Below the pieces are notes generated by a model. The model searched no databases and had not been told where the DNA came from. It was given only the letters and a program-made list of their open reading frames with translations. From an uncultured Desulfocapsaceae bacterium (GTDB taxonomy: Bacteria > Desulfobacterota > Desulfobulbia > Desulfobulbales > Desulfocapsaceae): a stretch of DNA of 64,000 nt. A program made the position numbers and the translations under genes. Positions 2,567 to 47,384 of the stretch are shown here, in pieces (position 1 is the stretch's first letter; each line of letters opens with the position of its first letter). The stretch covers positions 35,365-99,364 of the forward strand of contig CAZOWJ010000002.1 of assembly GCA_964583415.1 (NCBI GenBank). Reading direction: 5' to 3'.

Positions 2567-3742
2567 ATGATAGGATCTATGGATCAGAAAAAATGTGCCG
2601 CCAGGATGGATAAGATTGTACCATTCTATGTCATGGAGCTGTTGGCTCGTGCGAAAGAACTTGAAGCACGCGGTGTGTCGGTTATTCACATGGAAGTCGG
2701 TGAACCCGATTTTACAACAGCCCGACCGGTGATCGAAGCCGGGAAACGTGCCATGGATGCAGGTCATACCGGCTATACTCCGGCCACAGGCATTCCTCAG
2801 CTGAAAGAGGCGATAGCCCAACACTATCGGAACTGGTTCGAGATTGATATTGATCCCCGGCGAATTATTATAACCCCGGGTTCTTCAGGAGCGCTGCAGC
2901 TGATATTGGGCGTGCTGGTCGATCCGGGCAGAGAAGTCTTGATGACAGATCCCGGCTATCCCTGCAATAAAAATTTTGTGGAATTTTTTTCAGGAGTGCC
3001 GAAACCCATCCCGGTTGGCCCCGAAAATGGATATCAGCTGGATAGTGAACAGGTTGAAAACGGGTGGAGCGAATCGACCTGTGCGGCTCTGGTGGCTACC
3101 CCTTCAAACCCCACCGGAACACTGTTGCCGCGCGATGAACTGGGCCGAATTCATAATGTTGTCAGCTCCAAAGGTGGTATGCTTATCGTCGATGAGATCT
3201 ACCAGGGACTTGTTTACGGTACTGACAACTATACTGCCCTGGGTCTTGGCGATGATCTTTTTGTATTGAACAGTTTTTCTAAATATTTTGGTATGACCGG
3301 CTGGCGACTTGGATGGCTGGTTGCCCCGGAAGCCTATCTTGATCATCTTGACTGCCTGGCCCAGAATATTTTTCTGTCCTGCTCTGCCCCTGCGCAGTAC
3401 GCAGCCCTTGATGCTTTTAGCCCACAATGTTATGAAATTTTCAGGAATCGGCGTGATGAGTTTAAAAAGAGAAGGGATTTCCTGCTACCGGCCCTGGAAT
3501 CTCTCGGTTTCGAGATCCCGGTGAAGCCGGAAGGTGCCTTTTATCTCTATACCAACTGTTCCAAGCTGACCGAAGACAGTTTCAAGTTTTGCTATGAACT
3601 GCTGGAAGCGGAAGGTGTGGCAATAACTCCTGGTAAGGACTTTGGTGCCAACAGGCCGGAGGAACATATTCGTTTTGCCTATACGACCAGTATTGAACGC
3701 ATGGCGGAGGCGGTAGAGAGATTGCGGCGCTTTATTGGTTGA
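2567..3742 (+). CDS. Class I/II pyridoxal-phosphate aminotransferase (aspartate/aromatic type)
   Basis: Motifs PFYVMELL, EPDF, TPGSSGAL, NPTG and SFSKYFGMTGWRLGW (PLP-Lys motif). The true start may be ATG 2579 or 2606. Confidence 0.85.
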   Translation: MIGSMDQKKCAARMDKIVPFYVMELLARAKELEARGVSVIHMEVGEPDFTTARPVIEAGKRAMDAGHTGYTPATGIPQLKEAIAQHYRNWFEIDIDPRRIIITPGSSGALQLILGVLVDPGREVLMTDPGYPCNKNFVEFFSGVPKPIPVGPENGYQLDSEQVENGWSESTCAALVATPSNPTGTLLPRDELGRIHNVVSSKGGMLIVDEIYQGLVYGTDNYTALGLGDDLFVLNSFSKYFGMTGWRLGWLVAPEAYLDHLDCLAQNIFLSCSAPAQYAALDAFSPQCYEIFRNRRDEFKKRRDFLLPALESLGFEIPVKPEGAFYLYTNCSKLTEDSFKFCYELLEAEGVAITPGKDFGANRPEEHIRFAYTTSIERMAEAVERLRRFIG

Positions 3743-3920
3743 TTTATCATTTTCTCTGCCTGCTGACTATTGAGGGCAGAGCCAGCAATGGAACAAACCT
3801 TGTATATCTGGTGAGAAGTACTACTTGACTGAAAGCAGAACATATAATAGTTGTCGGCTTTTTGCATGTTGATCCACTCATGAGATACTATTAAATATCA
3901 GATTTTAAAGGAGAATTGTT

Positions 3921-5627
3921 ATGAACAATGCCCAGATTTTGGCAAAAAGTTTCGCTGACCTGGGTGTCAAGCGGGTTTTTGGTTTTTCAGGCGCGACAAT
4001 ATTACCGGTTTTTCACGCCATCGAAGAGTGCGGTATCGATATCGTCGTAGATGCCAATGAGCAGTCTTGTGCCTTTGCAGCAGGTGGCTATTCCCGGGCC
4101 AGTAATGAGGTCGGCATTGCGGTTGTTACCTCAGGTCCTGCAATAACCAATACCCTTACTGCCGTTGCCGATGCAAATGCTGACTCGGTTCCACTGCTGG
4201 TTTTTGCCGGGCAGGTCGCTCAGACCAAGATGGGGACAGATGAATTCCAGACCATTAATGTTGCAAGTATTTTTGCTGATGCTGCCAAAAAAGTGATTCT
4301 GGTTACTGAGTTGCAAAATGTTGAGGAGATTGTTAAGGATGCCTATTTTCTGGCGAAATCTGGAAAACCCGGACCAGTGGTCATTGATTTTCCGTTTGAT
4401 ATCCAGAAATCTGACGGCGAATATAAGTCCATTGAGTCGGCACGATTTCGTTATAAATACGATGAAGAACGACACCTGGGAGATAACCAGTGTCGCCAGT
4501 TCTTTGATCTGCTGCAAAAAGCCAAACGCCCGCTTCTCTATATCGGCGGCGGACTTAACTCTACAGCGGCAAGTGAACGAATACGTGCCTTTAACCGACG
4601 CTATAGAGTTCCTTCCATCTGGAGTTTGATGGGTAAGGGCATATTGAATGAGGCAGGTGACTGGGCTCTCGGCATGCTCGGTATGTTTGGTGTTCCGGCC
4701 GCAAATATGGCTATTCAGCAGACGGACCTGTTTGTTGCTTTTGGAATTCGCTGGGATGATCGTGTGTCTCAAAAAGTTGGTGAATCCGGCCTTGCTGCAG
4801 ACATTGCCTATTTTGACATAAATCCCGAGAAAGTGCAGGAGGTACGTTTTTCACGAAATCCAAAGTTCTCTTTTATCGGCAAAGCGGAAACCGCCCTGGA
4901 TGATCTGCTAAAATATGCAGAGGAGCACGACATCCAATTGGATATCGGTGAATGGCAGGAGCAGACCCGCCGCTTGAAGGAAGACCACCCACTTAACTTT
5001 GACAGAGAGTCAAAAGATATTCAGCAGGCCGAGGTAATGGAGTTGCTTTCAGGCCATATTACAGAGAATACCAAAATCACCACCGGTGTCGGCAACCATC
5101 AGATGTTTGCCGCCCAACACCTGATGACCTTGACACCAAAATCGTTCATAACATCAGGTGGATATGGAACAATGGGCTTTTCCCTACCGACCGCAATCGG
5201 TGCTCAGTATGCCAACCCTGAGGCGACGATAATTTCGATAGATGGTGACGGCAGTATGCTGATGAACCTTGGAGAACTGTTCACTATTGGAAAGTATGAA
5301 TTACCGGTTAAGGTTTTGATGCTGAATAATCATGGTGACTGTATGGTGAGAAACATTCAGGACCTCATGTATGGAGGGAGTTATGTTGGTACAAAGAAAA
5401 TAACCTCTGTCAGCTTTGCCAATGTAGCCGGTGAGCTGGGCTTTCGTTTTGCCCATCGTGTTGAGGATCGCAAGGAGCTGAAAGGGAGTCTGAAAGCGTT
5501 TATTGAAGCAGAAGGCCCGTCATTTCTGGAAGTGGTCACCGACGTTGACGAGATGCTCTATCCTCGAATTCCTGGGGGACTCGGGTATAAAGATATGATT
5601 CTTGGACCGCATATGGAGAAGAAATAG
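3921..5627 (+). CDS. ilvB: Thiamine-diphosphate enzyme of the acetolactate synthase large-subunit family (divergent)
   Basis: Motifs TSGPAITNTLTAVADANADSVPLLVFAGQV, GTDEFQ, GPVVIDFPFD, and a ThDP motif IDGDGSMLMNLGEL..NN. It has ANEQ where canonical ALS has RHEQ. RBS AAGGAG. Confidence 0.7.
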   Translation: MNNAQILAKSFADLGVKRVFGFSGATILPVFHAIEECGIDIVVDANEQSCAFAAGGYSRASNEVGIAVVTSGPAITNTLTAVADANADSVPLLVFAGQVAQTKMGTDEFQTINVASIFADAAKKVILVTELQNVEEIVKDAYFLAKSGKPGPVVIDFPFDIQKSDGEYKSIESARFRYKYDEERHLGDNQCRQFFDLLQKAKRPLLYIGGGLNSTAASERIRAFNRRYRVPSIWSLMGKGILNEAGDWALGMLGMFGVPAANMAIQQTDLFVAFGIRWDDRVSQKVGESGLAADIAYFDINPEKVQEVRFSRNPKFSFIGKAETALDDLLKYAEEHDIQLDIGEWQEQTRRLKEDHPLNFDRESKDIQQAEVMELLSGHITENTKITTGVGNHQMFAAQHLMTLTPKSFITSGGYGTMGFSLPTAIGAQYANPEATIISIDGDGSMLMNLGELFTIGKYELPVKVLMLNNHGDCMVRNIQDLMYGGSYVGTKKITSVSFANVAGELGFRFAHRVEDRKELKGSLKAFIEAEGPSFLEVVTDVDEMLYPRIPGGLGYKDMILGPHMEKK

Positions 5628-6540: not shown

Positions 6541-6713
6541 ATAAATTTACTCTATCCTCTCTTACCCCAGCCTCCTCGGTGTTGAACGGTACCCTTCTTC
6601 ATAAAAATGCTTATTCTCTTCATTGTGTACGTGCGGGTCTTCTGGCTACAGCTCCTCGGGAGCGGTTTTCACCAGTTTAAACCGATAATATCCGGATACA
6701 TGAGGAGGTCGAG

Positions 6714-7250
6714 ATGGTCCAGTATCAGATTTCTGTTGAAGAGTTTGGTTCCCTTAGCGCTTATGATGATCGTGAAGAGGCAGTCCAACTTTCCACATTG
6801 TGGCAGAAGGGGACCGCCGTTTTGGTCTTTGTGCGTCATTTTGGCTGAGTAATTTGCCGTCAGCAGGTTGCTGAATTGGCTGGCTACCAGGATGATTTTT
6901 CAAAGCGAGGGGCGCAGCTTGCTGTCGTCGGTAATGGCAGTGTCAAGGATTTGAAAAAATTTAGAAACGTCACAGGTTACCGGGGCATTCTGCTCACCGA
7001 TCCCTCCCGGGACTCCTATAAATTTTTAAAGTTTAAAAGCGGTCTAACCGATATCATCGGGATGAAATCCTTCACTCAGGGTTTTTCGGCTCTAAGATCG
7101 GGTTTCATGCCCGGTTCGCTTCAGGGTCATGCCCTGCAGCTTGGTGGTGCCGTCGTTGTCGTGCCGGAGGGCAACATCACCTACTTCTTCAAAAGCTCTG
7201 CGGCAGGCGATCACCCGCCTGTTGAGACTCTGCTGGCGGCCGTAGGGTAA
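6714..7250 (+). CDS. Peroxiredoxin-like (AhpC/TSA_2, PRXL2-type) thiol oxidoreductase with in-frame UGA, a candidate selenoprotein with a UxxC redox motif
   Basis: ATG 6714 follows RBS GAGGAGG. The frame is open except for TGA at 6846-6848. The translation reads ...GTAVLVFVRHFG-U-VICRQQVAEL..., where the family consensus is FLRHFGCxxCR. The track's ORF 6876-7250 is only the C-terminal part (QLGGAVVVVPEGNITYFFKSSAAGDHPP). Confidence 0.7.
6856..6880 (+). promoter_or_regulatory. Candidate bacterial SECIS hairpin
   Basis: GCC-g-TCAGC AGGTT GCTGA-att-GGC begins 8 nt after the UGA. The apical loop AGGUU contains G-U and lies 17-21 nt downstream of the UGA. Confidence 0.45.
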
Positions 7251-7563: not shown

Positions 7564-7866
7564 TTAAGGTATCCAGAGGAATTGTTCCAGGTCAACCCTG
7601 CCGTCGGTGAGAAAAACAGACTCCTGCTCGAGAAGCTGTTCCTGGGTGAGATGGCTCATTGATTTTCGCGGGGGTATTTCACCTTTAACATTTACCACTC
7701 GATGCCAGGGCAGATTGTACCTATCTGAACTAGAGTGCAGGATTCTTGCGACCTGTCGGGCACCGCAATGGTTTCCTGCTGAGGCAGCGATCAATCCGTA
7801 GGTTGTTACCTTGCCGCACGGTATTCTGCCGATAATCGAAATGACCTGTTGTGTGAATTGCTGCAT
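7564..7866 (-). CDS. atl: Alkyltransferase-like (ATL) protein, MGMT-fold without the acceptor Cys
   Basis: IPCGKVTTYGLIA..GARQVARIL...LPWHRVVN carries the PWHRV motif (Trp replaces the PCHRV Cys), as in E. coli YbaZ/Atl. 100 aa. Confidence 0.75.
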   Translation of the reverse strand: MQQFTQQVISIIGRIPCGKVTTYGLIAASAGNHCGARQVARILHSSSDRYNLPWHRVVNVKGEIPPRKSMSHLTQEQLLEQESVFLTDGRVDLEQFLWIP

Positions 7867-7976: not shown

Positions 7977-10388
7977 TTATTGAGGGTTAAGCGGGTTTTC
8001 GAGCTTGTATCGTTCTATTTTCCTGCGTAGTGTGTCCTTTGATATGCCGAGTTCCCGGCAGGTAATCATCTTTTTCCATTTGTTGCGCTCAAGAGAACTG
8101 GCTATCGCCTGCTGTTCAATCTGATCGAGGGTCGCCCCAGCTTCCATAGCAGCGAAGTTGGTATGGTCTCTATGAGAATCGGGCAGAAAAGACTCTGGAA
8201 GATGATCTTCTTGAATAAATCCAGCGCTACAGAGGATGAATCCATATTCTATGATGTTTTCAAGTTCTCTGATGTTCCCCGGAAATGAATGAAGCATAAG
8301 CTTTTTTAATACAGCATCGCTGACACCGACAATGTCTTTTTGCTTTTCAGCCCTGAATTTATCAACAAAGTGATCGATCAGCAGTGGTATGTCTTCCTTG
8401 CGGTCGCGCAGCGGGGGCAGCGTGATATCGACAACCTTGAGACGATAATAGAGATCATCCCTGAATAGACCATCGTCGACAAGTTGTTTCAGATCACGAT
8501 TGGTTGCGGCTATGACCCGGACATCAGCCTTGATCGATTCGTTTGAGCCCAGTGGTTCATAAACCCGTTCTTCAAGTACGCGGAGAAGTTTAACTTGAAG
8601 GGAGTGGGGTATGTCTCCGATTTCGTCAAGAAAAATTGTGCCGCCCTCAGCTGCCGCAAAACGGCCCTCCCGGTCTTTTCTGGCATCGGTGAAAGCTCCT
8701 GACCGGTAGCCGAAGAGTTCGGATTCCAGCAACGTTTCAGGAATTGCGCCACAGTTAACGGAGAGAAAGGGCTGGTCTTTACGAGCGGAGGCGCTGACAA
8801 TTGCATCAGCCATAATTCCTTTTCCTGTACCGCTTTCCCCAAGGATAAGTACGGTGCTGTCACTGGTGGCGATATCGGGGAGGATCTGGAAAAATCGCTG
8901 CATGATATTGCTTTTACTTATGATTTCTTTGAAAGTGTAGCGTTGCATCAGTTGTTTACGCAACGATTCCATGACGGTCAGGTCCCGGAATGTTTCAACC
9001 CCGCCAACGACATTGCCAACCACATCAACCAGCGGTGACGCACTGATACTGATCGGTTTGCTTTTGCCTTCTTTGTCTTCGATCATTATCGAGCGGTTGG
9101 CAACTGGTCTTCCGGTATAAAGGCTTTCTGCGATCGCACAGTTTTTGCCGCAGATTGAAGAGTGGAAAACGTCACTGCAGAAACTGCCGATAGCAGCCTC
9201 CCGCTCCCATCCGGTGATGATTTCAGCAGCCATATTAAAAGAGGTAATTTGCCAGTTCCGGTCAACGGTAAACACACCATCGGCGATTGAATCGAGAATC
9301 AATTTGTTCTGCAGTGGCGCTGTATTGTCCCTGAAGGTCTGTACACAGCCGATGGCCCGTTTTTTGTCATCAAGCATTGGAGTGATCGAAACGACAATCG
9401 GGATATTGAAGCCATCCTTATCGGTTACAAAACCTTCCTGATCGATAATGTTGCACGGTTCTCCCGGGTCTGATGCGGTAATCGGGCAAGCAGATACCCC
9501 ATCAGCTGCGAAGAACAGTTCATCGCATGATCGACTGACAACATCATCTTCGAGCCAGCCTGTTATCCGTTCTGCACCTGCATTAAAAGATGTGATAATG
9601 CCCTTGCCATCAAAAGTGACGACCCCGTCGGCAACGGCATTTATTATGATATCACTCCTCACTGATTCACTGATGTCGCGAAAGGTCTCAACACCGCCAA
9701 TTACACGGTTTTCACTGTCAATAAGCGGTGCAGCACTGACGCTGACCGGAAAGGGCAGGCCGTTTTTTCGATAAATATATACATCACGGTCATGATAAAC
9801 ATTGGTGTTGTTCATAATACATGATGAGATTGCACATGATGACAGGCAGATATTTGATTGGAAAATCGTCTTACATGGCTTGCCGAGAACCTCCTCCTGT
9901 TTCCAGCCTGTCATTTTCTCGGCTGCTGAGTTAAAGGAGGTGATTTTCATCTCACCATCGACAGTAAATACTCCTTCCGCAATGGAGTCAAGTGCCAGTG
10001 CCCGCGGGGTTACGACCTCTGAGCGGTCAACCAGGCCGATATAAAATCCAAGGATATTTGCATCTGAATCAGGCAGGACGACAATACGGACTTTCAGGTT
10101 GTCTATTGACTGCTGGCGTGAACCGGCAAGGAAAAACTGCTCCGTTTTTATTGATTCAAAAGGTTTTCTCAGTCTTTCTGTCAAAGGGGCAAAACGGCTG
10201 TCTGCTTCTATCAGCGTTACCAGATGTTTTCCCAGAATATCCTCTTTACGGTGGCCAAGTGTTTGCGCTGCCCTGTTATTACAGGAATTTATTATACAGG
10301 ATCGATCGATGGTGATAAAACCGCTGTCAGGTTCGTGCAACCGTTTGTTGGGGACTGCCATGATGAACTCCACGTAGTGATAACCCAT
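7977..10388 (-). CDS. Sigma-54-dependent transcriptional activator with four N-terminal PAS domains
   Basis: AAA+ core GESGTGKG, a GAFTDA loop variant, DEIGDI, and a C-terminal Fis-type HTH (ITCRELGISKDTLRRKIERY). Three near-repeat PAS units each carry ITSFN.AAE..TGW. Confidence 0.9.
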   Translation of the reverse strand: MGYHYVEFIMAVPNKRLHEPDSGFITIDRSCIINSCNNRAAQTLGHRKEDILGKHLVTLIEADSRFAPLTERLRKPFESIKTEQFFLAGSRQQSIDNLKVRIVVLPDSDANILGFYIGLVDRSEVVTPRALALDSIAEGVFTVDGEMKITSFNSAAEKMTGWKQEEVLGKPCKTIFQSNICLSSCAISSCIMNNTNVYHDRDVYIYRKNGLPFPVSVSAAPLIDSENRVIGGVETFRDISESVRSDIIINAVADGVVTFDGKGIITSFNAGAERITGWLEDDVVSRSCDELFFAADGVSACPITASDPGEPCNIIDQEGFVTDKDGFNIPIVVSITPMLDDKKRAIGCVQTFRDNTAPLQNKLILDSIADGVFTVDRNWQITSFNMAAEIITGWEREAAIGSFCSDVFHSSICGKNCAIAESLYTGRPVANRSIMIEDKEGKSKPISISASPLVDVVGNVVGGVETFRDLTVMESLRKQLMQRYTFKEIISKSNIMQRFFQILPDIATSDSTVLILGESGTGKGIMADAIVSASARKDQPFLSVNCGAIPETLLESELFGYRSGAFTDARKDREGRFAAAEGGTIFLDEIGDIPHSLQVKLLRVLEERVYEPLGSNESIKADVRVIAATNRDLKQLVDDGLFRDDLYYRLKVVDITLPPLRDRKEDIPLLIDHFVDKFRAEKQKDIVGVSDAVLKKLMLHSFPGNIRELENIIEYGFILCSAGFIQEDHLPESFLPDSHRDHTNFAAMEAGATLDQIEQQAIASSLERNKWKKMITCRELGISKDTLRRKIERYKLENPLNPQ

Positions 10389-10636
10389 TTACATTTCTAG
10401 GTTATTTCACTATAAGCTTAAATAGAAGACTCTGCAATAAGTATGTATGAGTTTTCAGGTGAGCACAGGGCGCGATCTGTTTGCCCAACAGAATAGAAAC
10501 GTCACAGTTGTCCGGACATAAATGAAGTGAAACAGTTTGTAATACATGCTAAAGTGCAGATTATATTATACTACTCAGTAACAGATTGCGCTGAATCAGG
10601 GTGTTGAGGTCCATTTATAACCGGTAAACATAAAGA

Positions 10637-11767
10637 ATGTCTTCAAGCGCAGAAAAACAGCCTCAGAACGATATATTGACCACCGATGGGCACTCCGTTC
10701 ATGCCGTTGCTGGAATTGAACTCTTTCACTCAATTCAGGATCCCGTCCTTATAGTAACACCTCCCGGAATAATTATTGATGCCAACAAGGCAACCTTGCT
10801 GGCAGCCGGCAAAACTCGTGATGAGATCATAGGCAAGGGGATCTGCGAAATCATACACGGCGGCCGCTGGCCTCATATCAAGTGTCCTCTGGAGGAATTT
10901 CTGCTTACCTGCACCGGCAGAAACGAAGATACTCGCCTTCCCGGCCTCGGCGGAGAATATCATCTGACCATCACTCCGCTGGTAGATCTGGATGAGTCTG
11001 TTCAGTCAATTCTACTGCAGGCGCGTAGGCTTACCAGTGAGGAGTCAAGTAAAGTTGAGACTATTCGAACGGCCCAACTGGCTGCCATCGGCGAACTCGC
11101 AGCAGGTGTCGCCCACGAGGTCAATAACCCCATCAATGGTATCATTAATTATGCCCAGTTGTTGCTCGATGACGCTGAGAAGGGCACGCTCCAGGCCGAA
11201 TTGCTTGGAAGAATAGTCCAGGAGGGCGATCGGATTGCAACGATCATATACAGTCTGCTCTCCTTTGCCCGTGAAAATGAAAATGAGCTCAAGGAAATCG
11301 AATTTAAAGAGGTGATTCATTCCTGTATCAATCTGGTGGATCACCAGTTAAAAAGTGAAGGAATTCAACTGGAACTGCATCTTTCAGAGCGCAGCTGCAT
11401 AATTGTCGGTAACTATATGCAGCTCCAGCAGGTTATTCTCAATACCATCAACAACAGCAGGTATGCACTCAATGAACGCTACCCTGAGAGTTCAGCCGAC
11501 AAACGGCTTCGGATAAGTTGTGAACCTGTCCAGGCAGAAGAGGGAAGTGAGATAAAGGTCATTATTAGGGATTTTGGTACTGGGATTCCCCAGGGAATCC
11601 TCGACAAGCTCTTTGAGCCGTTCTTTACCAGTAAACCTGCCGGCCAGGGGACCGGCCTTGGCTTGAGCATCAGCTACGGCATCATTAAGAATCACGGTGG
11701 CAGGCTGTCAGTTGATTCGATTCTTAATAAATATACCGATATGATAATTACCATACCGGAGGCTTAA
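10637..11767 (+). CDS. Soluble PAS-domain sensor histidine kinase
   Basis: There is no TM segment. It has a PAS domain, the H-box [25 protein letters not shown], an N-box [10 protein letters not shown], and G-boxes RDFGTGIP and GTGLGLS. Confidence 0.85.
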
Positions 11768-11782
11768 AAAATTACCGAACCT

Positions 11783-13549
11783 ATGCTCGATCGGAATATC
11801 CTGATAGTAGATGATGAGGAGAGTTTACGGTTGACGTTTGAAATGTTTCTCAAGCGAGAGGGATATAGCAACGTACAGACCGCAGCCACCGTTGAAGAGG
11901 CCCTTACGGCAATAAGCAAAGGCCGGTTTGATCTCATCATCAGTGATATCGTTCTGGGCGGAGAAAAAGGCACCGAGCTTCTGCGTCATATACGACAAAC
12001 AGGTATTTCCTGTCCCGTTGTCATGGTTACCGGTTTTCCAAACCTGGAGACCGCTTCTGAAGCTGTTCGGCTTGGCGCTTTTGACTACATTTCCAAACCG
12101 GTAAATAAGGAGAAGCTTCTGAAGCTGGTTCGGCAAGCGCTGGCCTTCTGGGAGCTCGAGCTTGAAAAACGCTCACTTATTATACAGAACGAGAAGTATC
12201 AGCATTACCTGGAGGCAATTTTCAGCTCGGTTGAAGATGCCATTATAGCAGTTGATAACCGCTGTAACATTCTCAAGCTCAACCGGACAGCAGAGTCGCT
12301 GCTTGATGAATTTCGTGATGACAGTGACAGCGATGGAAAGGTTTTACCGGGCGAGATAGGCAGCGCCTGTATGAAAGACGCACTGCTGGTCATCGAGAAG
12401 GGCAGTATTGTCAGGGAACATATCATTGAATGTGTCAATGTGGACGGCGCCTCAAAAATGTTTTCGATTAATGCGGCACCACTTGATATAGATGATGAAA
12501 TTTCTAACGGTGCGGTAATTGTTGTGCGTGACGTAACGAGGGCAGAGGAACAGAATGTGCCGTCACAGAGGGAACAATTCCATGGCTTTGTCGGCGCCAG
12601 CCAGGTTATGCAGTCTATCTATCGACTCATTGAAAATGTTGGTAAGGTTGAAACTGCCGTTTTGATAGCCGGCGAATCGGGAACAGGCAAGGAACTGGCC
12701 GCAGAGGCGCTGCACGCAGAAAGTTCTCGAAGTACCATGCCCCTTGTAAAGGTTGACTGTGGAGCGTTACCTGAGGAATTGCTGGAAAGTGAGCTTTTCG
12801 GTCACCGTAAGGGTGCTTTTACCGGCGCTGATCGTGACAGACCTGGCAGATTGCTGCAGGCTGACAAGGGAACACTGTTACTTGACGAAATTGGTGATAT
12901 AACCCATCGTATGCAATTACGGCTTCTTCGCTTTCTGCAGGAGATGACCTTTACCCCCGTTGGAATGGATACTCCGGTCAGTGTTGATGTCCGTGTGATT
13001 GCTGCAACCAATGTCAACCTACGGGAAAAAGTTCGAGAGGGTGGCTTCCGCGAAGATCTTTATTATCGACTCAAAGTTGTTGAAATCGTTCTCCCCCCCC
13101 TACGTGATAGAAAAAAGTGCCTGCCAATACTCATCAACCATTTTCTTACTTTTTTCTCACAAAAACATGCCAGGCATGTTCATTCGATCTCTGATCGGGC
13201 CATGGATGCAATGGTGTCTTACTCTTGGCCCGGTAACGTCAGAGAACTAAAACATATAATGGAGCGGGGCGTTGTGCTCTGCCTTGGCAATAACCTGTTG
13301 CTGGAACATCTCCCGGATGAAATACTTGAATATAATAGTCCACCAGACCCTGCGCTAGAACGATCTGGGAATGTACCGCAATCACACCATCTCAGCCACG
13401 ATCAGATATATTCAGCACAGCAGAACGAACTTATTGAAGCTCTCAAACAGGCTGGCGGCAACAAGTCCAGGGCTGCTCAAATTCTCGATATAGACCGGTC
13501 GACACTGTATCGCCGGCTTCGTCGATTTAAGATCACAACCGGACCGTAG
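11783..13549 (+). CDS. NtrC-family sigma-54-dependent response regulator (REC-PAS-AAA+-HTH)
   Basis: REC domain (ILIVDDE..DLIISD..), GESGTGKE, an intact GAFTGA, and a C-terminal HTH (AAQILDIDRSTLYRRLRRF). It starts 16 nt after the kinase gene. Confidence 0.9.
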   Translation: MLDRNILIVDDEESLRLTFEMFLKREGYSNVQTAATVEEALTAISKGRFDLIISDIVLGGEKGTELLRHIRQTGISCPVVMVTGFPNLETASEAVRLGAFDYISKPVNKEKLLKLVRQALAFWELELEKRSLIIQNEKYQHYLEAIFSSVEDAIIAVDNRCNILKLNRTAESLLDEFRDDSDSDGKVLPGEIGSACMKDALLVIEKGSIVREHIIECVNVDGASKMFSINAAPLDIDDEISNGAVIVVRDVTRAEEQNVPSQREQFHGFVGASQVMQSIYRLIENVGKVETAVLIAGESGTGKELAAEALHAESSRSTMPLVKVDCGALPEELLESELFGHRKGAFTGADRDRPGRLLQADKGTLLLDEIGDITHRMQLRLLRFLQEMTFTPVGMDTPVSVDVRVIAATNVNLREKVREGGFREDLYYRLKVVEIVLPPLRDRKKCLPILINHFLTFFSQKHARHVHSISDRAMDAMVSYSWPGNVRELKHIMERGVVLCLGNNLLLEHLPDEILEYNSPPDPALERSGNVPQSHHLSHDQIYSAQQNELIEALKQAGGNKSRAAQILDIDRSTLYRRLRRFKITTGP

Positions 13550-35781: not shown

Positions 35782-36435
35782 ATGAAAAGAACTTTAAGAG
35801 CAATGATGATAGCATCAGTTATCTTGTTGATTGGGGGTGCTGGCTTTGCGGCTGAGAATGAAACATTCAATACTGAGAAGATGATCTCTGATTTGAATGA
35901 CAAGATCGAATTATCCAAAGAGCAGTGGGAAAAGTTGAAGCCTGTCCTGGGTGAAAAGAGTGAGGAACTGAAGAAAAGCATAAATGAGCATGTTGATAAG
36001 GGCTATATCCAGATGGAGGAGATGTCCCGGAAGTTAAAGGGAGTCAGTGAGGACACGGAGAAGAAACTTGAAACCTTTCTCAATAGTGAGGAAATGCAGA
36101 AACTGAAAAACTACCTCAATGAGCTGGATGAAGAGGCCATAAAGGAGGCAAAAGATCGATTGGTTGCCGAATTTTCGGAAATCCTTGTCCTCACAGAGGA
36201 ACAGGTGGATAAACTCAAACCTGTTTTGGAAGACAGTATGAGCCAGATGTCTGAAATGATACAGGAGCTGGCAGACAGGGGCAGCAGTGGCTGGGAAGAA
36301 TTTAAAAAACAGTACAAGTCCTTAACTGAGGAGTTGAAAAAGAAACTGGAAGACACCCTGGATAGAAAACAGATGGAACGATTTGAGGAATACAAGCAGG
36401 ATAAACGGGATAAGATTGAGATAGCTTTTGCCTGA
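35782..36435 (+). CDS. Secreted coiled-coil protein with duplicated LTxxQ-type (Spy/CpxP-like) repeats
   Basis: It has a signal peptide. The two repeats are LSKEQWEKLKPVLGEKSEEL and LTEEQVDKLKPVLEDSMSQM. Confidence 0.55.
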   Translation: MKRTLRAMMIASVILLIGGAGFAAENETFNTEKMISDLNDKIELSKEQWEKLKPVLGEKSEELKKSINEHVDKGYIQMEEMSRKLKGVSEDTEKKLETFLNSEEMQKLKNYLNELDEEAIKEAKDRLVAEFSEILVLTEEQVDKLKPVLEDSMSQMSEMIQELADRGSSGWEEFKKQYKSLTEELKKKLEDTLDRKQMERFEEYKQDKRDKIEIAFA

Positions 36436-36474
36436 GACAGGTGTCTGTTGTTAATTATTTTTCTGGAGAGAGGG

Positions 36475-37575
36475 ATGGACCGTTCCAAAATCAATGATAA
36501 AAATTTTCTATCCTGGCTGACGCTTGCCATGATTGCCTGCTCACTGTGGCTTTTCAGGCCATATCTTCATTATCTGGTTGTCGGAGCTGTACTGGCATTA
36601 TCAACGAGTCACCTCTATGTTGCCCTGTTGGCATTTTCGGATAGATTTAAAGAGACAAGCTTATTGTATAAAACCCGTGAGGGAATGGCAGCGTTCGTTT
36701 TATCATTGACGTTTCTGGTGATGATTTTTGGTCCTTTACTCTATTTTATTTCGGTGATGTTACAACAGGCCGGGAACCTTGATCTGGACAGTATCAAACA
36801 GTCTCTGAGGGCTATTATTGAAAAACTGATTGATCTGCTCGATAGACTTCCATTTCTTGAAGAGCCGTTGACTCGCCTGAAGCAGGAGGGACTTTCTTTT
36901 ATAAGCGGTCCAGCCATTGACCTGCTGGCAGATGGTGCTGGGGGACTGATTACCGGAGTAAGCGGAATGGTCGGTCAGGTCGTCTGGATTCTTCTTTTTT
37001 ATTTCCTCTTCAATATGTATGGAAAGAAGATTTTGGTTTTTATTTCCGAGCTCGTACCGATGACCTATGAGCATCAGAGATACCTTTATCGTGAATGCAC
37101 CGGTACCGTCGCTGTGGTTTTTTACGGGACACTTTTCAATATGATTGCCCAGGGGCTTGCTTTTGGAGTCCTGATGGTTTTTATCGGTGATTATGATGCT
37201 CTTTATCTTGGCGCACTCTCAGGATTTTGCTCTGTTATTCCAATTGTCGGTGCTGCCCTTGTCTACGTACCGGTCATGGTTCTCGAGCTGCTGAATGGTA
37301 ATATCCTGAATTGCCTTATCATTCTTATCTTTGCCTTGGTGGTGATGGGTGTTCTTATTGATAATGTGCTGCGCATGATATTTATCGGTTTTTTGAAAAA
37401 AATGTTTGGCTTTGAATATACCATGAATGAGATCCTGATCTTGCTGGCAATACTTGCCGGCATCTCAACCATTGGTTTCTGGGGGTTGATAATCGGACCC
37501 TCTATCCTGGCTCTGACCCTGGCGGCAGCCAATCTCTATAGCTCATGGATTGATAAGGGCAAGGCCGGGTTGTAG
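36475..37575 (+). CDS. AI-2E/PerM (UPF0118) family transporter
   Basis: About 8 TM helices with a typical PerM layout. Start at ATG 36475 after GGAGAGAGGG. Confidence 0.75.
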   Translation: MDRSKINDKNFLSWLTLAMIACSLWLFRPYLHYLVVGAVLALSTSHLYVALLAFSDRFKETSLLYKTREGMAAFVLSLTFLVMIFGPLLYFISVMLQQAGNLDLDSIKQSLRAIIEKLIDLLDRLPFLEEPLTRLKQEGLSFISGPAIDLLADGAGGLITGVSGMVGQVVWILLFYFLFNMYGKKILVFISELVPMTYEHQRYLYRECTGTVAVVFYGTLFNMIAQGLAFGVLMVFIGDYDALYLGALSGFCSVIPIVGAALVYVPVMVLELLNGNILNCLIILIFALVVMGVLIDNVLRMIFIGFLKKMFGFEYTMNEILILLAILAGISTIGFWGLIIGPSILALTLAAANLYSSWIDKGKAGL

Positions 37576-38017: not shown

Positions 38018-39787
38018 TCAGTCTTTCTGGGGAACTCCCTCGTGGCTCCAGCCTCTTAGTCGGTAATAATCTTGAAGCATGAGTTCCATATCGGCTTCAC
38101 TTAATGATCCGCCTTCCGCCAGGGCTTCTTTATGGAATCGTTTGGGCAGTCGGTCGTCTTCGCTGCTCAATCCTTCCTGAATGTTGAATCGCCGGGTCAT
38201 GGTGGCAATATTTGCAGCGATAGCCTGCAGTTCTTCTATTGAGCGTTTGATACCGGTGACCATTTCCAGGGTATGTTCCAGTTCATCCCAGGAATAGAGA
38301 TCCCGGTAAAAACGGCACAGGGTCAAGGTGTCAAAGATGTTAAGTCGATCCTCATAATCAACGAGCATCTCAGCTTTATCCTCGATCTGGTCGGGGGGAA
38401 TAAGGCCGGACAATTCTGGCTTATAAAACGTGGTTCGCAGGTGACAGGCACCGCGAGGTGATGTACCGAATGTCAGCCCCATACCCTTCAGAACGCGAGG
38501 GTCATAACCGGCTGGTTCAAGTCCCTTGACATGGATGGCAAGGTCTTCAAGGCCCCATTTGCTTGAAGCGCTGATGATCCCGTCTGCCAGGATATTGCCA
38601 ATGCCGTTTCGGGAACCGATTTTTTCGACCAGATCTATGGTCTGGTCCGCATTTCCATACTCGATTTCATAGTCAAGCCGTCCCTGCTCATGTGCCTCCA
38701 TCACTAATCCGCAAAGGTTCCCGGTTGTGATTGTGTCAATGCCCAGCCGATCGCACAAGTCATTGAGGTAGGCAACTTCCTCCATCTCTTTAATCATGCA
38801 GAGGCCACCAAAAGAATAGATTGTCTCATATTCAGGGCCTTCAATTGTTAGCCCCTCATGGCGTCCCTTGCTGATGGTGGCAAGCCGGCCGCAGGCCATA
38901 AAGCATTTTGCACAGGCATGGGGGTGAATTTCATGCTGCTGATGATAGGTTTCACCACTAATCTCTTCAACATGTTCACATGTCCCCTGACTCCAGTATT
39001 TTGCCGGAAAAGCACCGGCATTATTCATCAGGGTGACCATCATTGTCGTGCCCATTTTGCGATAGGCCTTGACGCCGGGATGTTGGGAATTTTCTTTCGA
39101 GAAGGTTTTGGCATATTCAGCAACGCCTTCCTGATCACTGTACCTGCGCGTCTGATTGCCTTGAAAGACCAGAGCCTTTACCAGTTTTGAACCAAGGACC
39201 GCGCCAACCCCTGTCCTTCCGGCACATCTCCATTTGTCATTGGCAATGATGGCAAATTTAACCAGCTTCTCTCCTGCCGGCCCGATTACCACTGCGCCGG
39301 GTTTTCTGAATCCTTCCTTGATTATCCCAAATCGTTTAACAGCCTGTTCCTCGGCGGTAAAGGTTTCCATGCCCCATAGATCGCCTGCGCTGTGGAACTC
39401 AACGCCGTCTGGCTGAATCGACAGCACCGTCGGCTGCTCTGATTTGCCATTTATAATAATGGCGTCAAATCCGGCTGAGTCAATTGATTCGGGAACCTTG
39501 CCTCCGGAGTAAGATTCTGCATAATACCCGGTAAGCGGTGATTTAGTGTAAACTCCATAGCGGCTGCCACCCCAGAGACGGCCACCACAGAAGGGCCCAG
39601 TCGCAATAATAAAGTTGTTCTCAGGGGCCAGGGGATCGACTCCGGGAGGATTTCGTTCAAGCAACAGATGCGTTGCCAACCCCTTTCCACCGATGCATTT
39701 ACTCAGGAGTTCATCGGTAAGGTCTTCGATGATGAAGCTTCTGGTGCTCAAATTGATGGTAAGGATACGGTTGTAATAGCCGTACAT
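38018..39787 (-). CDS. aor: Tungsten-type aldehyde:ferredoxin oxidoreductase
   Basis: The N-terminus MYGYYNRILTINLSTRSF..EDL and length (589 aa) are characteristic of the AOR family. Confidence 0.9.
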   Translation of the reverse strand: MYGYYNRILTINLSTRSFIIEDLTDELLSKCIGGKGLATHLLLERNPPGVDPLAPENNFIIATGPFCGGRLWGGSRYGVYTKSPLTGYYAESYSGGKVPESIDSAGFDAIIINGKSEQPTVLSIQPDGVEFHSAGDLWGMETFTAEEQAVKRFGIIKEGFRKPGAVVIGPAGEKLVKFAIIANDKWRCAGRTGVGAVLGSKLVKALVFQGNQTRRYSDQEGVAEYAKTFSKENSQHPGVKAYRKMGTTMMVTLMNNAGAFPAKYWSQGTCEHVEEISGETYHQQHEIHPHACAKCFMACGRLATISKGRHEGLTIEGPEYETIYSFGGLCMIKEMEEVAYLNDLCDRLGIDTITTGNLCGLVMEAHEQGRLDYEIEYGNADQTIDLVEKIGSRNGIGNILADGIISASSKWGLEDLAIHVKGLEPAGYDPRVLKGMGLTFGTSPRGACHLRTTFYKPELSGLIPPDQIEDKAEMLVDYEDRLNIFDTLTLCRFYRDLYSWDELEHTLEMVTGIKRSIEELQAIAANIATMTRRFNIQEGLSSEDDRLPKRFHKEALAEGGSLSEADMELMLQDYYRLRGWSHEGVPQKD

Positions 39788-46761: not shown

Positions 46762-47384
46762 TTGGAATAGAGTTTTTAGCTGCTGTTTCTACTGAATTCT
46801 GATACTATAAATCTAGATAATTTTTTTACGTGTTAGCGGGTTTTCTGATAATCAGTAGAAGGATATAACCGAAAGGCCTCGTTGGTGCTCAGATATCTGG
46901 GCAAATGCCGGGGCGGCAGGTTTTTCCCTGCGCTGTTGGTGATCTGTAGTGTTGTTGAGCCAACTCTCCTAAAAAGGGCGCTACCACTGTCCTCGAATGG
47001 GAAATTGAACAATTTCCCAGATGTTGATATGCGGCACCCACCTATTTCGATAGGTTTAACTTGTCCTATAGACACGGCAGGGTGGGGAAAATCTTTTTGT
47101 ACACAATGTTCGGGCGGATGCTGGACATTGTTTAATATATGGGCAGTTCATGAACGCTCTGGGGTTCGTTACTGCCTCGTGTTGCAAAACCAAGAAACAT
47201 TACAAAAGCGGGAAAAACGCTTAGCAGACGGTAAAGAAACCTGACAGGTTGTTTGCCAGTTGAAAATGAGCGATGCATGTTCCTAACCGGGCTCTGCTAT
47301 CGTTTCAGCGACTGGATAAAGATAAATGGTGATTAAAAGCACCGATGGTTTTGCTGTCGGTGTGCTGTATTTGAACAGTAAGCA

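Follow-up and report, generated by a model that had tools for sequence, protein, structure and literature searches.

Does the TGA at positions 6846-6848 of a 64,000-nucleotide (nt) stretch of DNA from an uncultured Desulfocapsaceae bacterium (contig CAZOWJ010000002.1, positions 35,365 to 99,364; hereafter the window, at its full length) terminate a short open reading frame (ORF), or is it an internal codon for selenocysteine (Sec) within a longer gene? The ORF list for the window shows two ORFs in the same frame, one of 44 amino acids (aa) that starts with ATG and ends at this TGA (6714..6848) and one of 124 aa that starts with TTG (6876..7250), and in the identical contigs of public assemblies (GCA_003704835.1 and GCA_003704855.1) the gene is likewise called as 44-aa and 124-aa ORFs. 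A sequence-only reading had proposed that the two are parts of a single selenoprotein gene of a known type that standard gene callers would split or truncate, which is what the public gene calls indeed show. From the evidence presented below, we conclude with high confidence that 6714-7250 encodes one ~19-kDa, probably cytoplasmic, thioredoxin-fold oxidoreductase of the peroxiredoxin (Prx)-like/PRXL2/SelL-related kind, with the active site U45-V-I-C48 in which Sec is encoded by UGA.

The in-frame TGA and its conservation

Translation of 6714-7250 yields one frame in which the TGA, flanked by LVFVRHFG on the 5' side and VICRQQVAEL on the 3' side, is the sole internal stop, with TAA at 7248-7250; the frame is thus open from the ATG save for one codon, as the sequence-only reading had it, and the GAGGAGG ribosome-binding site (RBS) described ahead of this ATG is in place (Table 1). 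In most of the relatives inspected, the ATG likewise lies 44-45 codons 5' of the TGA and is preceded by a GGAG-type RBS. With Cys put in place of the in-frame stop for the profile searches, the read-through product matches the Pfam domains AhpC-TSA_2 (PF13911; E = 4.7e-14, 53.2 bits against a gathering cutoff of 27) and AhpC-TSA (PF00578; E = 6.2e-10, 39.5 bits against a cutoff of 26). The latter match covers residues 17-107 and thus extends across the TGA, whereas the truncated 124-aa ORF alone gives only E = 0.18. The sole NCBIfam match, NF040769 ('SelL-related redox protein'), aligns end to end, model positions 6-172 with residues 14-176 (E = 2e-32). Together with a strand at residues 34-39 of the structural model described below, these extents identify the 44 upstream codons as the N-terminal region of the family, in line with the initial proposal.

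The homolog search returned entries of three kinds, namely, distant full-length proteins with Cys at the column of the TGA, the closest 'full-length' proteins with Trp at this column (P0001-3, P0019 and P0034), and many truncated proteins that begin right after it. The DNA of three of the Trp entries carries TGA at the column, and hence the Trp is a gene-calling artefact of genetic code 4. A genome scan with one genome per species yielded 76 loci, to which 3 metagenome loci were added; TGA is present at the column in 73 of the 76 genome loci (~68 species-level genomes) and in all 3 metagenome loci, which together with the window gene make up the Sec-form set of 77 genes. The carriers are nearly all members of the Desulfobulbales (Desulfopila, Desulforhopalus, Desulfofustis, Desulfosediminicola, Desulfogranum) or the Desulfobacterales (Desulfotignum, Desulfobacula, Desulfospira); cultured ones include Desulfofustis glycolicus DSM 9705, Desulfospira joergensenii DSM 10085 and Desulfopila sp. 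IMCC35008. Identity to the window protein is between 40% and 91% and separates the loci into two groups, one at 71-91% and the other at 40-56%. Two outgroup loci, from Acidobacteriota and 'Deltapro1', have TGC and TGT, respectively, at the column. Two TGA-containing copies were found in eight assemblies: four assemblies have one copy per group, in three both copies belong to the close group, and in the remaining one (L064/L069) both belong to the distant group. The other pairs are L009/L050 (Desulfopila sp. IMCC35008, NZ_CP050700.1; one copy per group), L005/L028, L017/L030, L018/L029, L012/L023, L016/L025 and L011/L026.

The alignment to Cys-containing homologs confirmed that the TGA falls at the first Cys of the CxxC motif: R41-H42-F43-G44-C45 is invariant across 48 aligned Cys-form homologs. 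The second position of the motif is Cys in 77/77 Sec-form genes (codon TGC in 53 and TGT in 24), and the Cys48 column is at least 90% conserved in the Cys-form homologs. In codons 26-44, ahead of the TGA, the amino acids are kept while the codons vary among the 77 genes (six codons for L26 and four for A35), indicating that this segment is translated and evolves under purifying selection; the same combination of amino acid conservation and synonymous variation is seen on both sides of the TGA. Given the single frame with a good RBS, the profile match across the TGA, and the purifying selection on codons 26-44, 6714-7250 is, judging by its sequence, one gene rather than two.

The only locus without the motif, L078 from a metagenome-assembled genome (MAG) of Desulfotignum (~9950-10300), has the N-terminal part up to VFVRH joined out of frame to the C-terminal third, and appears, from this arrangement, to be the product of an internal deletion or a misassembly that removed the Sec/SECIS segment (SECIS, selenocysteine insertion sequence).

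The RNA helix downstream of the TGA

The sequence-only reading placed a hairpin at 6856-6880, at the distance from the TGA that is expected of a bacterial SECIS. This hairpin is present (the fold of 6855-6881 has dG ~ -11.7 kcal/mol), and the comparative analysis refines it to a conserved 15-nt mini-helix (Table 1). When the 77 Sec-form genes are stacked, gap-free, on the TGA and positions are counted from the U of UGA, nt 15-29 read UCAGC-AGGUN-GCUGA in essentially every gene, with a core of 13 nt that is invariant across the set. The exact core motif of the window gene occurs once in the 64 kb. Every copy in the two-copy assemblies has the identical core. Four of the five pairs of the stem never vary, and 98.9% of the cells are paired.

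The codons that contribute to the stem are fixed to an extent that their amino acids do not explain, being far less variable than other conserved codons for the same residues in the same genes. Gln50 (stem) and Gln51 (stem and loop) are both CAG in 77/77 genes, compared with 0.54-0.71 bits for other conserved Gln codons; Ala53 (stem) is GCT in 77/77, that is, 0 bits against 1.76-1.98 for other Ala codons; and Arg49 (stem) is CGT in 73/77, where other Arg codons show 2.19-2.34 bits. The third base of the codon for Val52, which lies in the loop, varies (1.41 bits). Thus, the four codons with the lowest entropy among 51 conserved degenerate codons are R49, Q50, Q51 and A53, all of them in the stem; the chance of the four lowest falling within a pre-specified run of five codons is C(5,4)/C(51,4) = 5/249,900, or ~2e-5. 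Because the codons are compared within the same genes, kinship among the sequences is controlled for.

As an external control, 80 further Cys-form loci were collected from metagenomes, for a total of 81. All five stem pairs are possible in 1 of these 81 loci, and most can form 0-2; Arg49 is encoded by CGT in 0 of 29 Cys forms, and the Ala53 codon is mostly GCC. The peptide Arg-Gln-Gln-Val-Ala-Glu itself is encoded in 3 of the 81 Cys-form loci, and L073, from an Acidobacteriota MAG, is among the Cys forms that encode Arg-Gln-Gln-Val-Ala. The one Cys-form locus that is already able to form all five stem pairs is among those that encode this peptide and has the sequence CGCCAGCAGGTCGCTGGC. Collectively, the codon comparison within the Sec forms and the control with the Cys forms show selection at the RNA level on a helix inside the coding region, in the Sec forms only.

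The lower stem, GCC/GGC, of the extended hairpin was considered as a further conserved feature and rejected: it is kept only in part, with 70% of the cells paired (pair 11-35 in 63/76 and pair 12-34 in 72/76) and six double changes, mostly within one clade, and RNAalifold retains the core alone.

We compared the mini-helix to the SECIS of Escherichia coli fdhF, an experimentally defined bacterial SECIS taken here from strain MG1655. The fdhF mini-helix occupies nt 15-31 and that of the window gene nt 15-29, such that both start at nt 15 after an 11-nt spacer, and both run through GCAGGU into an apical loop that holds a G and a U.

Family, fold and predicted reaction

The only relative with a solved structure found by sequence is human prostamide/prostaglandin F synthase (PGFS) PRXL2B (PDB 9us9; E = 5e-14), in which the block RRFG-C44-VV-C47-R aligns with RHFG-U-VI-C-R of the window protein. 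A deposited PRXL2B mutant, C44S/C47S (PDB 9usa), replaces exactly the two aligned Cys residues, which points to Cys44/Cys47 as the active pair of PGFS. An AlphaFold2 model was made for P0001, the database entry that is 83% identical to the window protein, with a predicted local distance difference test (pLDDT) score of 89 and a predicted template modeling (pTM) score of 0.87. In this model, the strand formed by residues 34-39 leads to the active-site loop that contains position 45, followed by a helix at 46-56, so that position 45 is modelled at the classic redox-box site of the thioredoxin fold. In a Foldseek search with the model, PGFS came first (TM-score 0.82-0.89), followed by the BCP/PrxQ peroxiredoxins and ResA. 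PRXL2B is thus the closest solved structure by both sequence and fold and shares the active-site block, but it is eukaryotic, contains Cys rather than Sec, is only 23-26% identical to the window protein, and acts on prostaglandin H2 (PGH2) and prostamide H2, substrates that are not expected in sulfate reducers.

The PxxxT/SxxC peroxidatic motif of typical Prx is absent: the window protein has VRHFG-U-VI-C, with Sec/Cys at the position of the Thr/Ser of Prx. The Prx motif is defined in PMC4989117 and PMC13188914, and the thioredoxin-type CxxC motif in PMC4989117; U-V-I-C lies at the strand-to-helix junction that is characteristic of the thioredoxin-type CxxC and is aligned with C44-V-V-C47 of PGFS. 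Because Sec/Cys stands at the Thr/Ser position of Prx, a thioredoxin-like mechanism is expected. Inspection of the sequence by eye shows no evident hydrophobic segment at the N-terminus, and the protein is probably cytoplasmic.

These features suggest the following sequence of events. SelB carrying Sec-tRNA(Sec) would bind the mini-helix in the mRNA, with GGU in its apical loop, 11 nt past the UGA, and the UGA would then be decoded as Sec rather than as a stop. From homology, the U45 selenolate, positioned at the N-terminus of the helix 46-56, is predicted to attack an oxidised substrate, either a disulfide or an organic (endo/hydro)peroxide, the latter as in the reaction of PRXL2B with PGH2. 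Cys48 would resolve the intermediate to form an intramolecular selenenylsulfide, which a thioredoxin-type reductant may recycle, by analogy with PRXL2B.

Proteins of this general kind are not new, in agreement with the sequence-only reading and with the literature (PMC4989117, PMC13188914). Computational work on bacteria and eukaryotes has reported Prx-like proteins with Sec in place of the first Cys of the redox box (PMC4989117, PMC2398784), and several Deltaproteobacteria are listed as having a 'Prx-like thiol:disulfide oxidoreductase' (PF00578; UxxC/UxxU) (PMC1794560, PMC1976440). Similarly to the window gene, the Prx-like UxxC selenoproteins (Prx-like thiol:disulfide oxidoreductase and Prx-like 1-3 of Zhang & Gladyshev; PMC2398784, PMC1794560, PMC13188914) have a thioredoxin/Prx-like fold in which the first Cys of CxxC is replaced by Sec, occur in Sec-rich Deltaproteobacteria, are known from computational prediction, and are annotated wrongly by standard pipelines. 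Compared by description only, the catalogued UxxC family belongs to PF00578, with a Geobacter representative (WP_010940744.1), whereas the best match of the window protein is PF13911. Desulfotalea psychrophila, which is reported to carry a Prx-like UxxC protein, is not among the 76 loci found by the motifs of the present family. The AhpC/TSA selenoprotein of the Olavius algarvensis delta-symbiont (PF13911/cd02970; PMC9312934, PMC13188914) has the same domain (AhpC-TSA_2/PRX_like2), Sec in the first position, and a deltaproteobacterial host, but, again compared by description only, it is a UxxS protein that lacks the resolving Cys, unlike the 77/77 UxxC genes analyzed here. SelL, which is also Prx-like and has Sec in its redox box (PMC2398784, PMC2397514), is UxxU and forms a diselenide, whereas a selenenylsulfide is expected for the UxxC of the window protein.

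In the inventories of 2022 and 2026 (PMC9312934, PMC13188914), NF040769 is absent and UxxS is the only form given for the PF13911/cd02970 selenoprotein; CAB1081847.1 and MDX2448127.1 are PF13911 proteins of this UxxS form. Under the rule applied in these reviews, that the same domain with a different Sec motif makes a different subfamily (PMC9312934, PMC13188914), the clade of the window gene is possibly a separate subfamily, its catalogued relatives having been compared by description only. A broader proposal, which we regard as tentative and, with all its parts taken together, rather doubtful, is that this is an uncatalogued PF13911/SelL-related UxxC subfamily with a SECIS that arose from frozen synonymous sites, and perhaps a Sec-dependent peroxide reductase. 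Under this proposal, most Desulfocapsaceae and many Desulfobacteraceae may have the subfamily fixed at one or two copies, the freezing may have involved three or four synonymous sites of a pre-existing, 'SECIS-ready' Arg-Gln-Gln-Val-Ala-Glu stretch, and the enzyme could reduce organic or lipid (endo)peroxides and thereby aid the oxygen tolerance of these anaerobes. More generally, the nucleotide comparison is compatible with a scenario in which the SECIS may have evolved from a pre-adapted coding stretch via few synonymous changes. If the proposal is true, the family would be a clean natural example of how the conversion of Cys to Sec becomes possible.

Alternative readings, genomic context and significance

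The case for Sec at position 45 also draws on the use of Sec in the lineage. In Desulfofustis sp. PB-SRB1, the contig that carries the Prx-like selenoprotein gene (L038) also encodes, ~5 kb away from it, a full-length homolog of the FdhF-type formate dehydrogenase (2739-4754, minus strand; 40% identity to E. coli FdhF) with an in-frame TGA, between DHCARL and HSPTVAGL, exactly at the column of E. coli Sec140. This TGA is followed by the hairpin GUGGCC-GGUCU-GGCCAC, with the GGUCU loop starting from nt 22. At least one genome with the present family therefore carries a canonical selenoprotein and a SECIS of the same geometry. SelD and 12 selenoproteins have been reported in Desulfotalea psychrophila, and Deltaproteobacteria are generally Sec-rich (PMC1794560). 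From these observations, we infer that the source genome is capable of Sec decoding.

Several observations weigh against the selenoprotein reading, or against parts of it. In the window, a Pfam survey of ~45 ORFs revealed no selA, selB or selD, and neither tRNA-Sec nor a tRNA of any other kind was detected; tblastn with E. coli SelA, SelB and SelD produced no match to the window, nor to the flanks taken from the genomes of the relatives (L004-L083). The single-sequence fold of the hairpin is no better than that of shuffled controls (z = -0.8 and -0.1); taken by itself, the hairpin is therefore no proof, and its significance comes from the comparative data. These data consist of frozen synonymous sites rather than covariation, there being no compensatory changes in a stem that does not vary. 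No SECIS family of Rfam matches the hairpin at either gathering or permissive thresholds, the region giving only chance-level matches (rseX, E = 4.4). Compared with fdhF, the stem has 5 bp and lacks the bulged U, the loop is AGGUN rather than GGUC, and the lower stem is weak, with little conservation; SelB binding is a prediction here. With C for U, the window protein scores 112 bits against NF040769, below the curated cutoff of 120; the other members of the Sec clade score 100-112 bits, and the Cys-form relatives score 127-140, above the cutoff. By the curated criterion, the Sec clade is a close sister of NF040769, not a member. No conserved gene neighbourhood hints at a substrate or partner, with any neighbour family common to at most 13 of ~76 loci, and Prx-like proteins have been described as 'never experimentally characterized' (PMC4989117).

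In the loci of 60 relatives, tRNA-Sec was not found. One candidate was rejected: ~1.4 kb 3' of the homolog in Desulfofustis glycolicus DSM 9705 (L045, 11921-12012, plus strand), ARAGORN calls a 'tRNA-???' of 92 nt that has an irregular anticodon, matches no Rfam tRNA or tRNA-Sec model, and is probably a false positive.

The alternative that fares best, although we consider it very improbable, is that the UGA is read as a standard amino acid, either Trp or Gly in the manner of codes 4 and 25, or else Cys or Trp through suppression that is near-cognate or independent of SelB. Trp is what several database entries show, and Sec machinery was not found in the 64-kb window; however, the DNA behind the Trp entries has TGA, the residue at this catalytic column in the homologs is Cys and never Trp or Gly, and the SECIS-like helix, with its fdhF-like spacing, is under selection only in the TGA-containing members. 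Furthermore, TGA terminates 13 of the 39 Pfam-supported genes in the window, and this codon is hence not generally reassigned. Under selenium limitation, the Sec pathway may occasionally insert Cys.

Still less probable is a pair of products, a 44-aa peptide and a re-initiated truncated protein (for example, from TTG 6876) without the first redox residue. This arrangement matches the ORF list and the public annotations, but VICRQQVAEL (6849-6875), which precedes any possible restart and includes Cys48, is the most conserved segment of the family. There is no conserved start or RBS after the TGA, the database truncations beginning variously to give proteins of 99, 108, 124 and 132-136 aa, and the strand 34-39 would part from the helix 46-56 of a single thioredoxin fold. 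The least credible alternative is that a Cys-form Prx-like gene became a pseudogene through a TGC/TGT-to-TGA nonsense mutation and yields a fragment or no product: such a change takes one point mutation at a Cys codon, gene callers handle the gene as broken, and L078 is a truly decayed relative with an internal deletion, but the same TGA is kept in 76 other loci of two orders, the residue conservation with synonymous variation on both sides of it is incompatible with neutral decay, the RNA helix that follows is constrained, and the 40-91% protein identities rule out a single, recently spread identical copy. The conserved TGA, the constrained upstream codons, and the RHFGC block that is invariant in the Cys forms jointly exclude, for practical purposes, both a pseudogene and two independent ORFs, and we retain the reading of 6714-7250 as one selenoprotein gene, in agreement with the initial proposal.

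Table 1. Elements of the predicted selenoprotein gene and other features of the window (positions in window coordinates)
Feature	Position	Strand	Basis or remark
RBS GAGGAGG	6702..6708	+	5 nt ahead of the ATG; read directly in the sequence
Complete selenoprotein coding sequence (predicted)	6714..7250	+	178 codons plus TAA, Sec = codon 45; translation, profiles, homologous loci
In-frame TGA (U45), first position of UxxC	6846..6848	+	TGA in 77/77 Sec-form loci; aligns with Cys44 of human PGFS
TGC (Cys48), predicted resolving Cys	6855..6857	+	invariant in Sec forms; also part of the weak lower SECIS stem, on its 5' side
SECIS mini-helix UCAGC-AGGUU-GCUGA (candidate)	6860..6874	+	5-bp stem, 5-nt apical loop with GGU; begins 11 nt past the UGA; comparative
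Extended hairpin	6856..6880	+	mini-helix plus short lower stem GCC/GGC; minimum free energy fold
Alkyltransferase-like (ATL) protein gene	7564-7866	-	100 aa, PF01035 (MGMT DNA-binding domain), with LPWHRVV
Regulatory cluster	7977-13549		sigma-54 activator with three PAS domains, PAS histidine kinase, sigma-54 response regulator
ORFs split by one TGA	35782-36435 / 36448-37575	+	unknown 217-aa ORF, then AI-2E family transporter
Aldehyde:ferredoxin oxidoreductase gene	38018-39787	-	consistent with an anaerobic Desulfobacterota host
6S (SsrS) RNA gene	46922-47092	+	Rfam RF00013, 68.9 bits against gathering 46.4, full-length
ORFs split by one TGA	61564-60476 / 60475-60065	-	QueA, then 136-codon extension without Pfam match

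The gene next downstream, on the opposite strand, encodes an ATL form of the MGMT domain, with Trp at the position of the active Cys of MGMT. PF01035 is listed among the families with Sec-containing members (PMC13188914); the codon here is TGG, not TGA. Two other same-frame pairs of ORFs in the window that are split by one TGA were considered and rejected: both are taken to be ordinary neighbours, and neither pair shows any sign of Sec.

The implications are, in the first place, for annotation. Dozens of public sulfate-reducing Desulfobacterota genomes and metagenomes are affected: the gene is split, cut to 99-136 aa, or given Trp under code 4, and the 128-136-aa fragments appear in GenBank as 'AhpC/TSA family protein' or 'peroxiredoxin-like family protein'. 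The nearest curated NCBIfam model misses the clade by a few bits; if it were corrected, one or two selenoproteins per genome would be recovered in two orders. The SECIS is unusually clean and invariant within a coding sequence, with freely varying synonymous sites in the same genes serving as an internal control. Replacement of Cys by Sec in thioredoxin-fold redox boxes is textbook knowledge for these bacteria, and the rescue of this mis-annotated selenoprotein fits that knowledge and changes no concept. With it, the PRXL2/SelL-related branch of the Prx-like proteins, a group without an experimentally characterised bacterial member, gains a well-supported UxxC protein.

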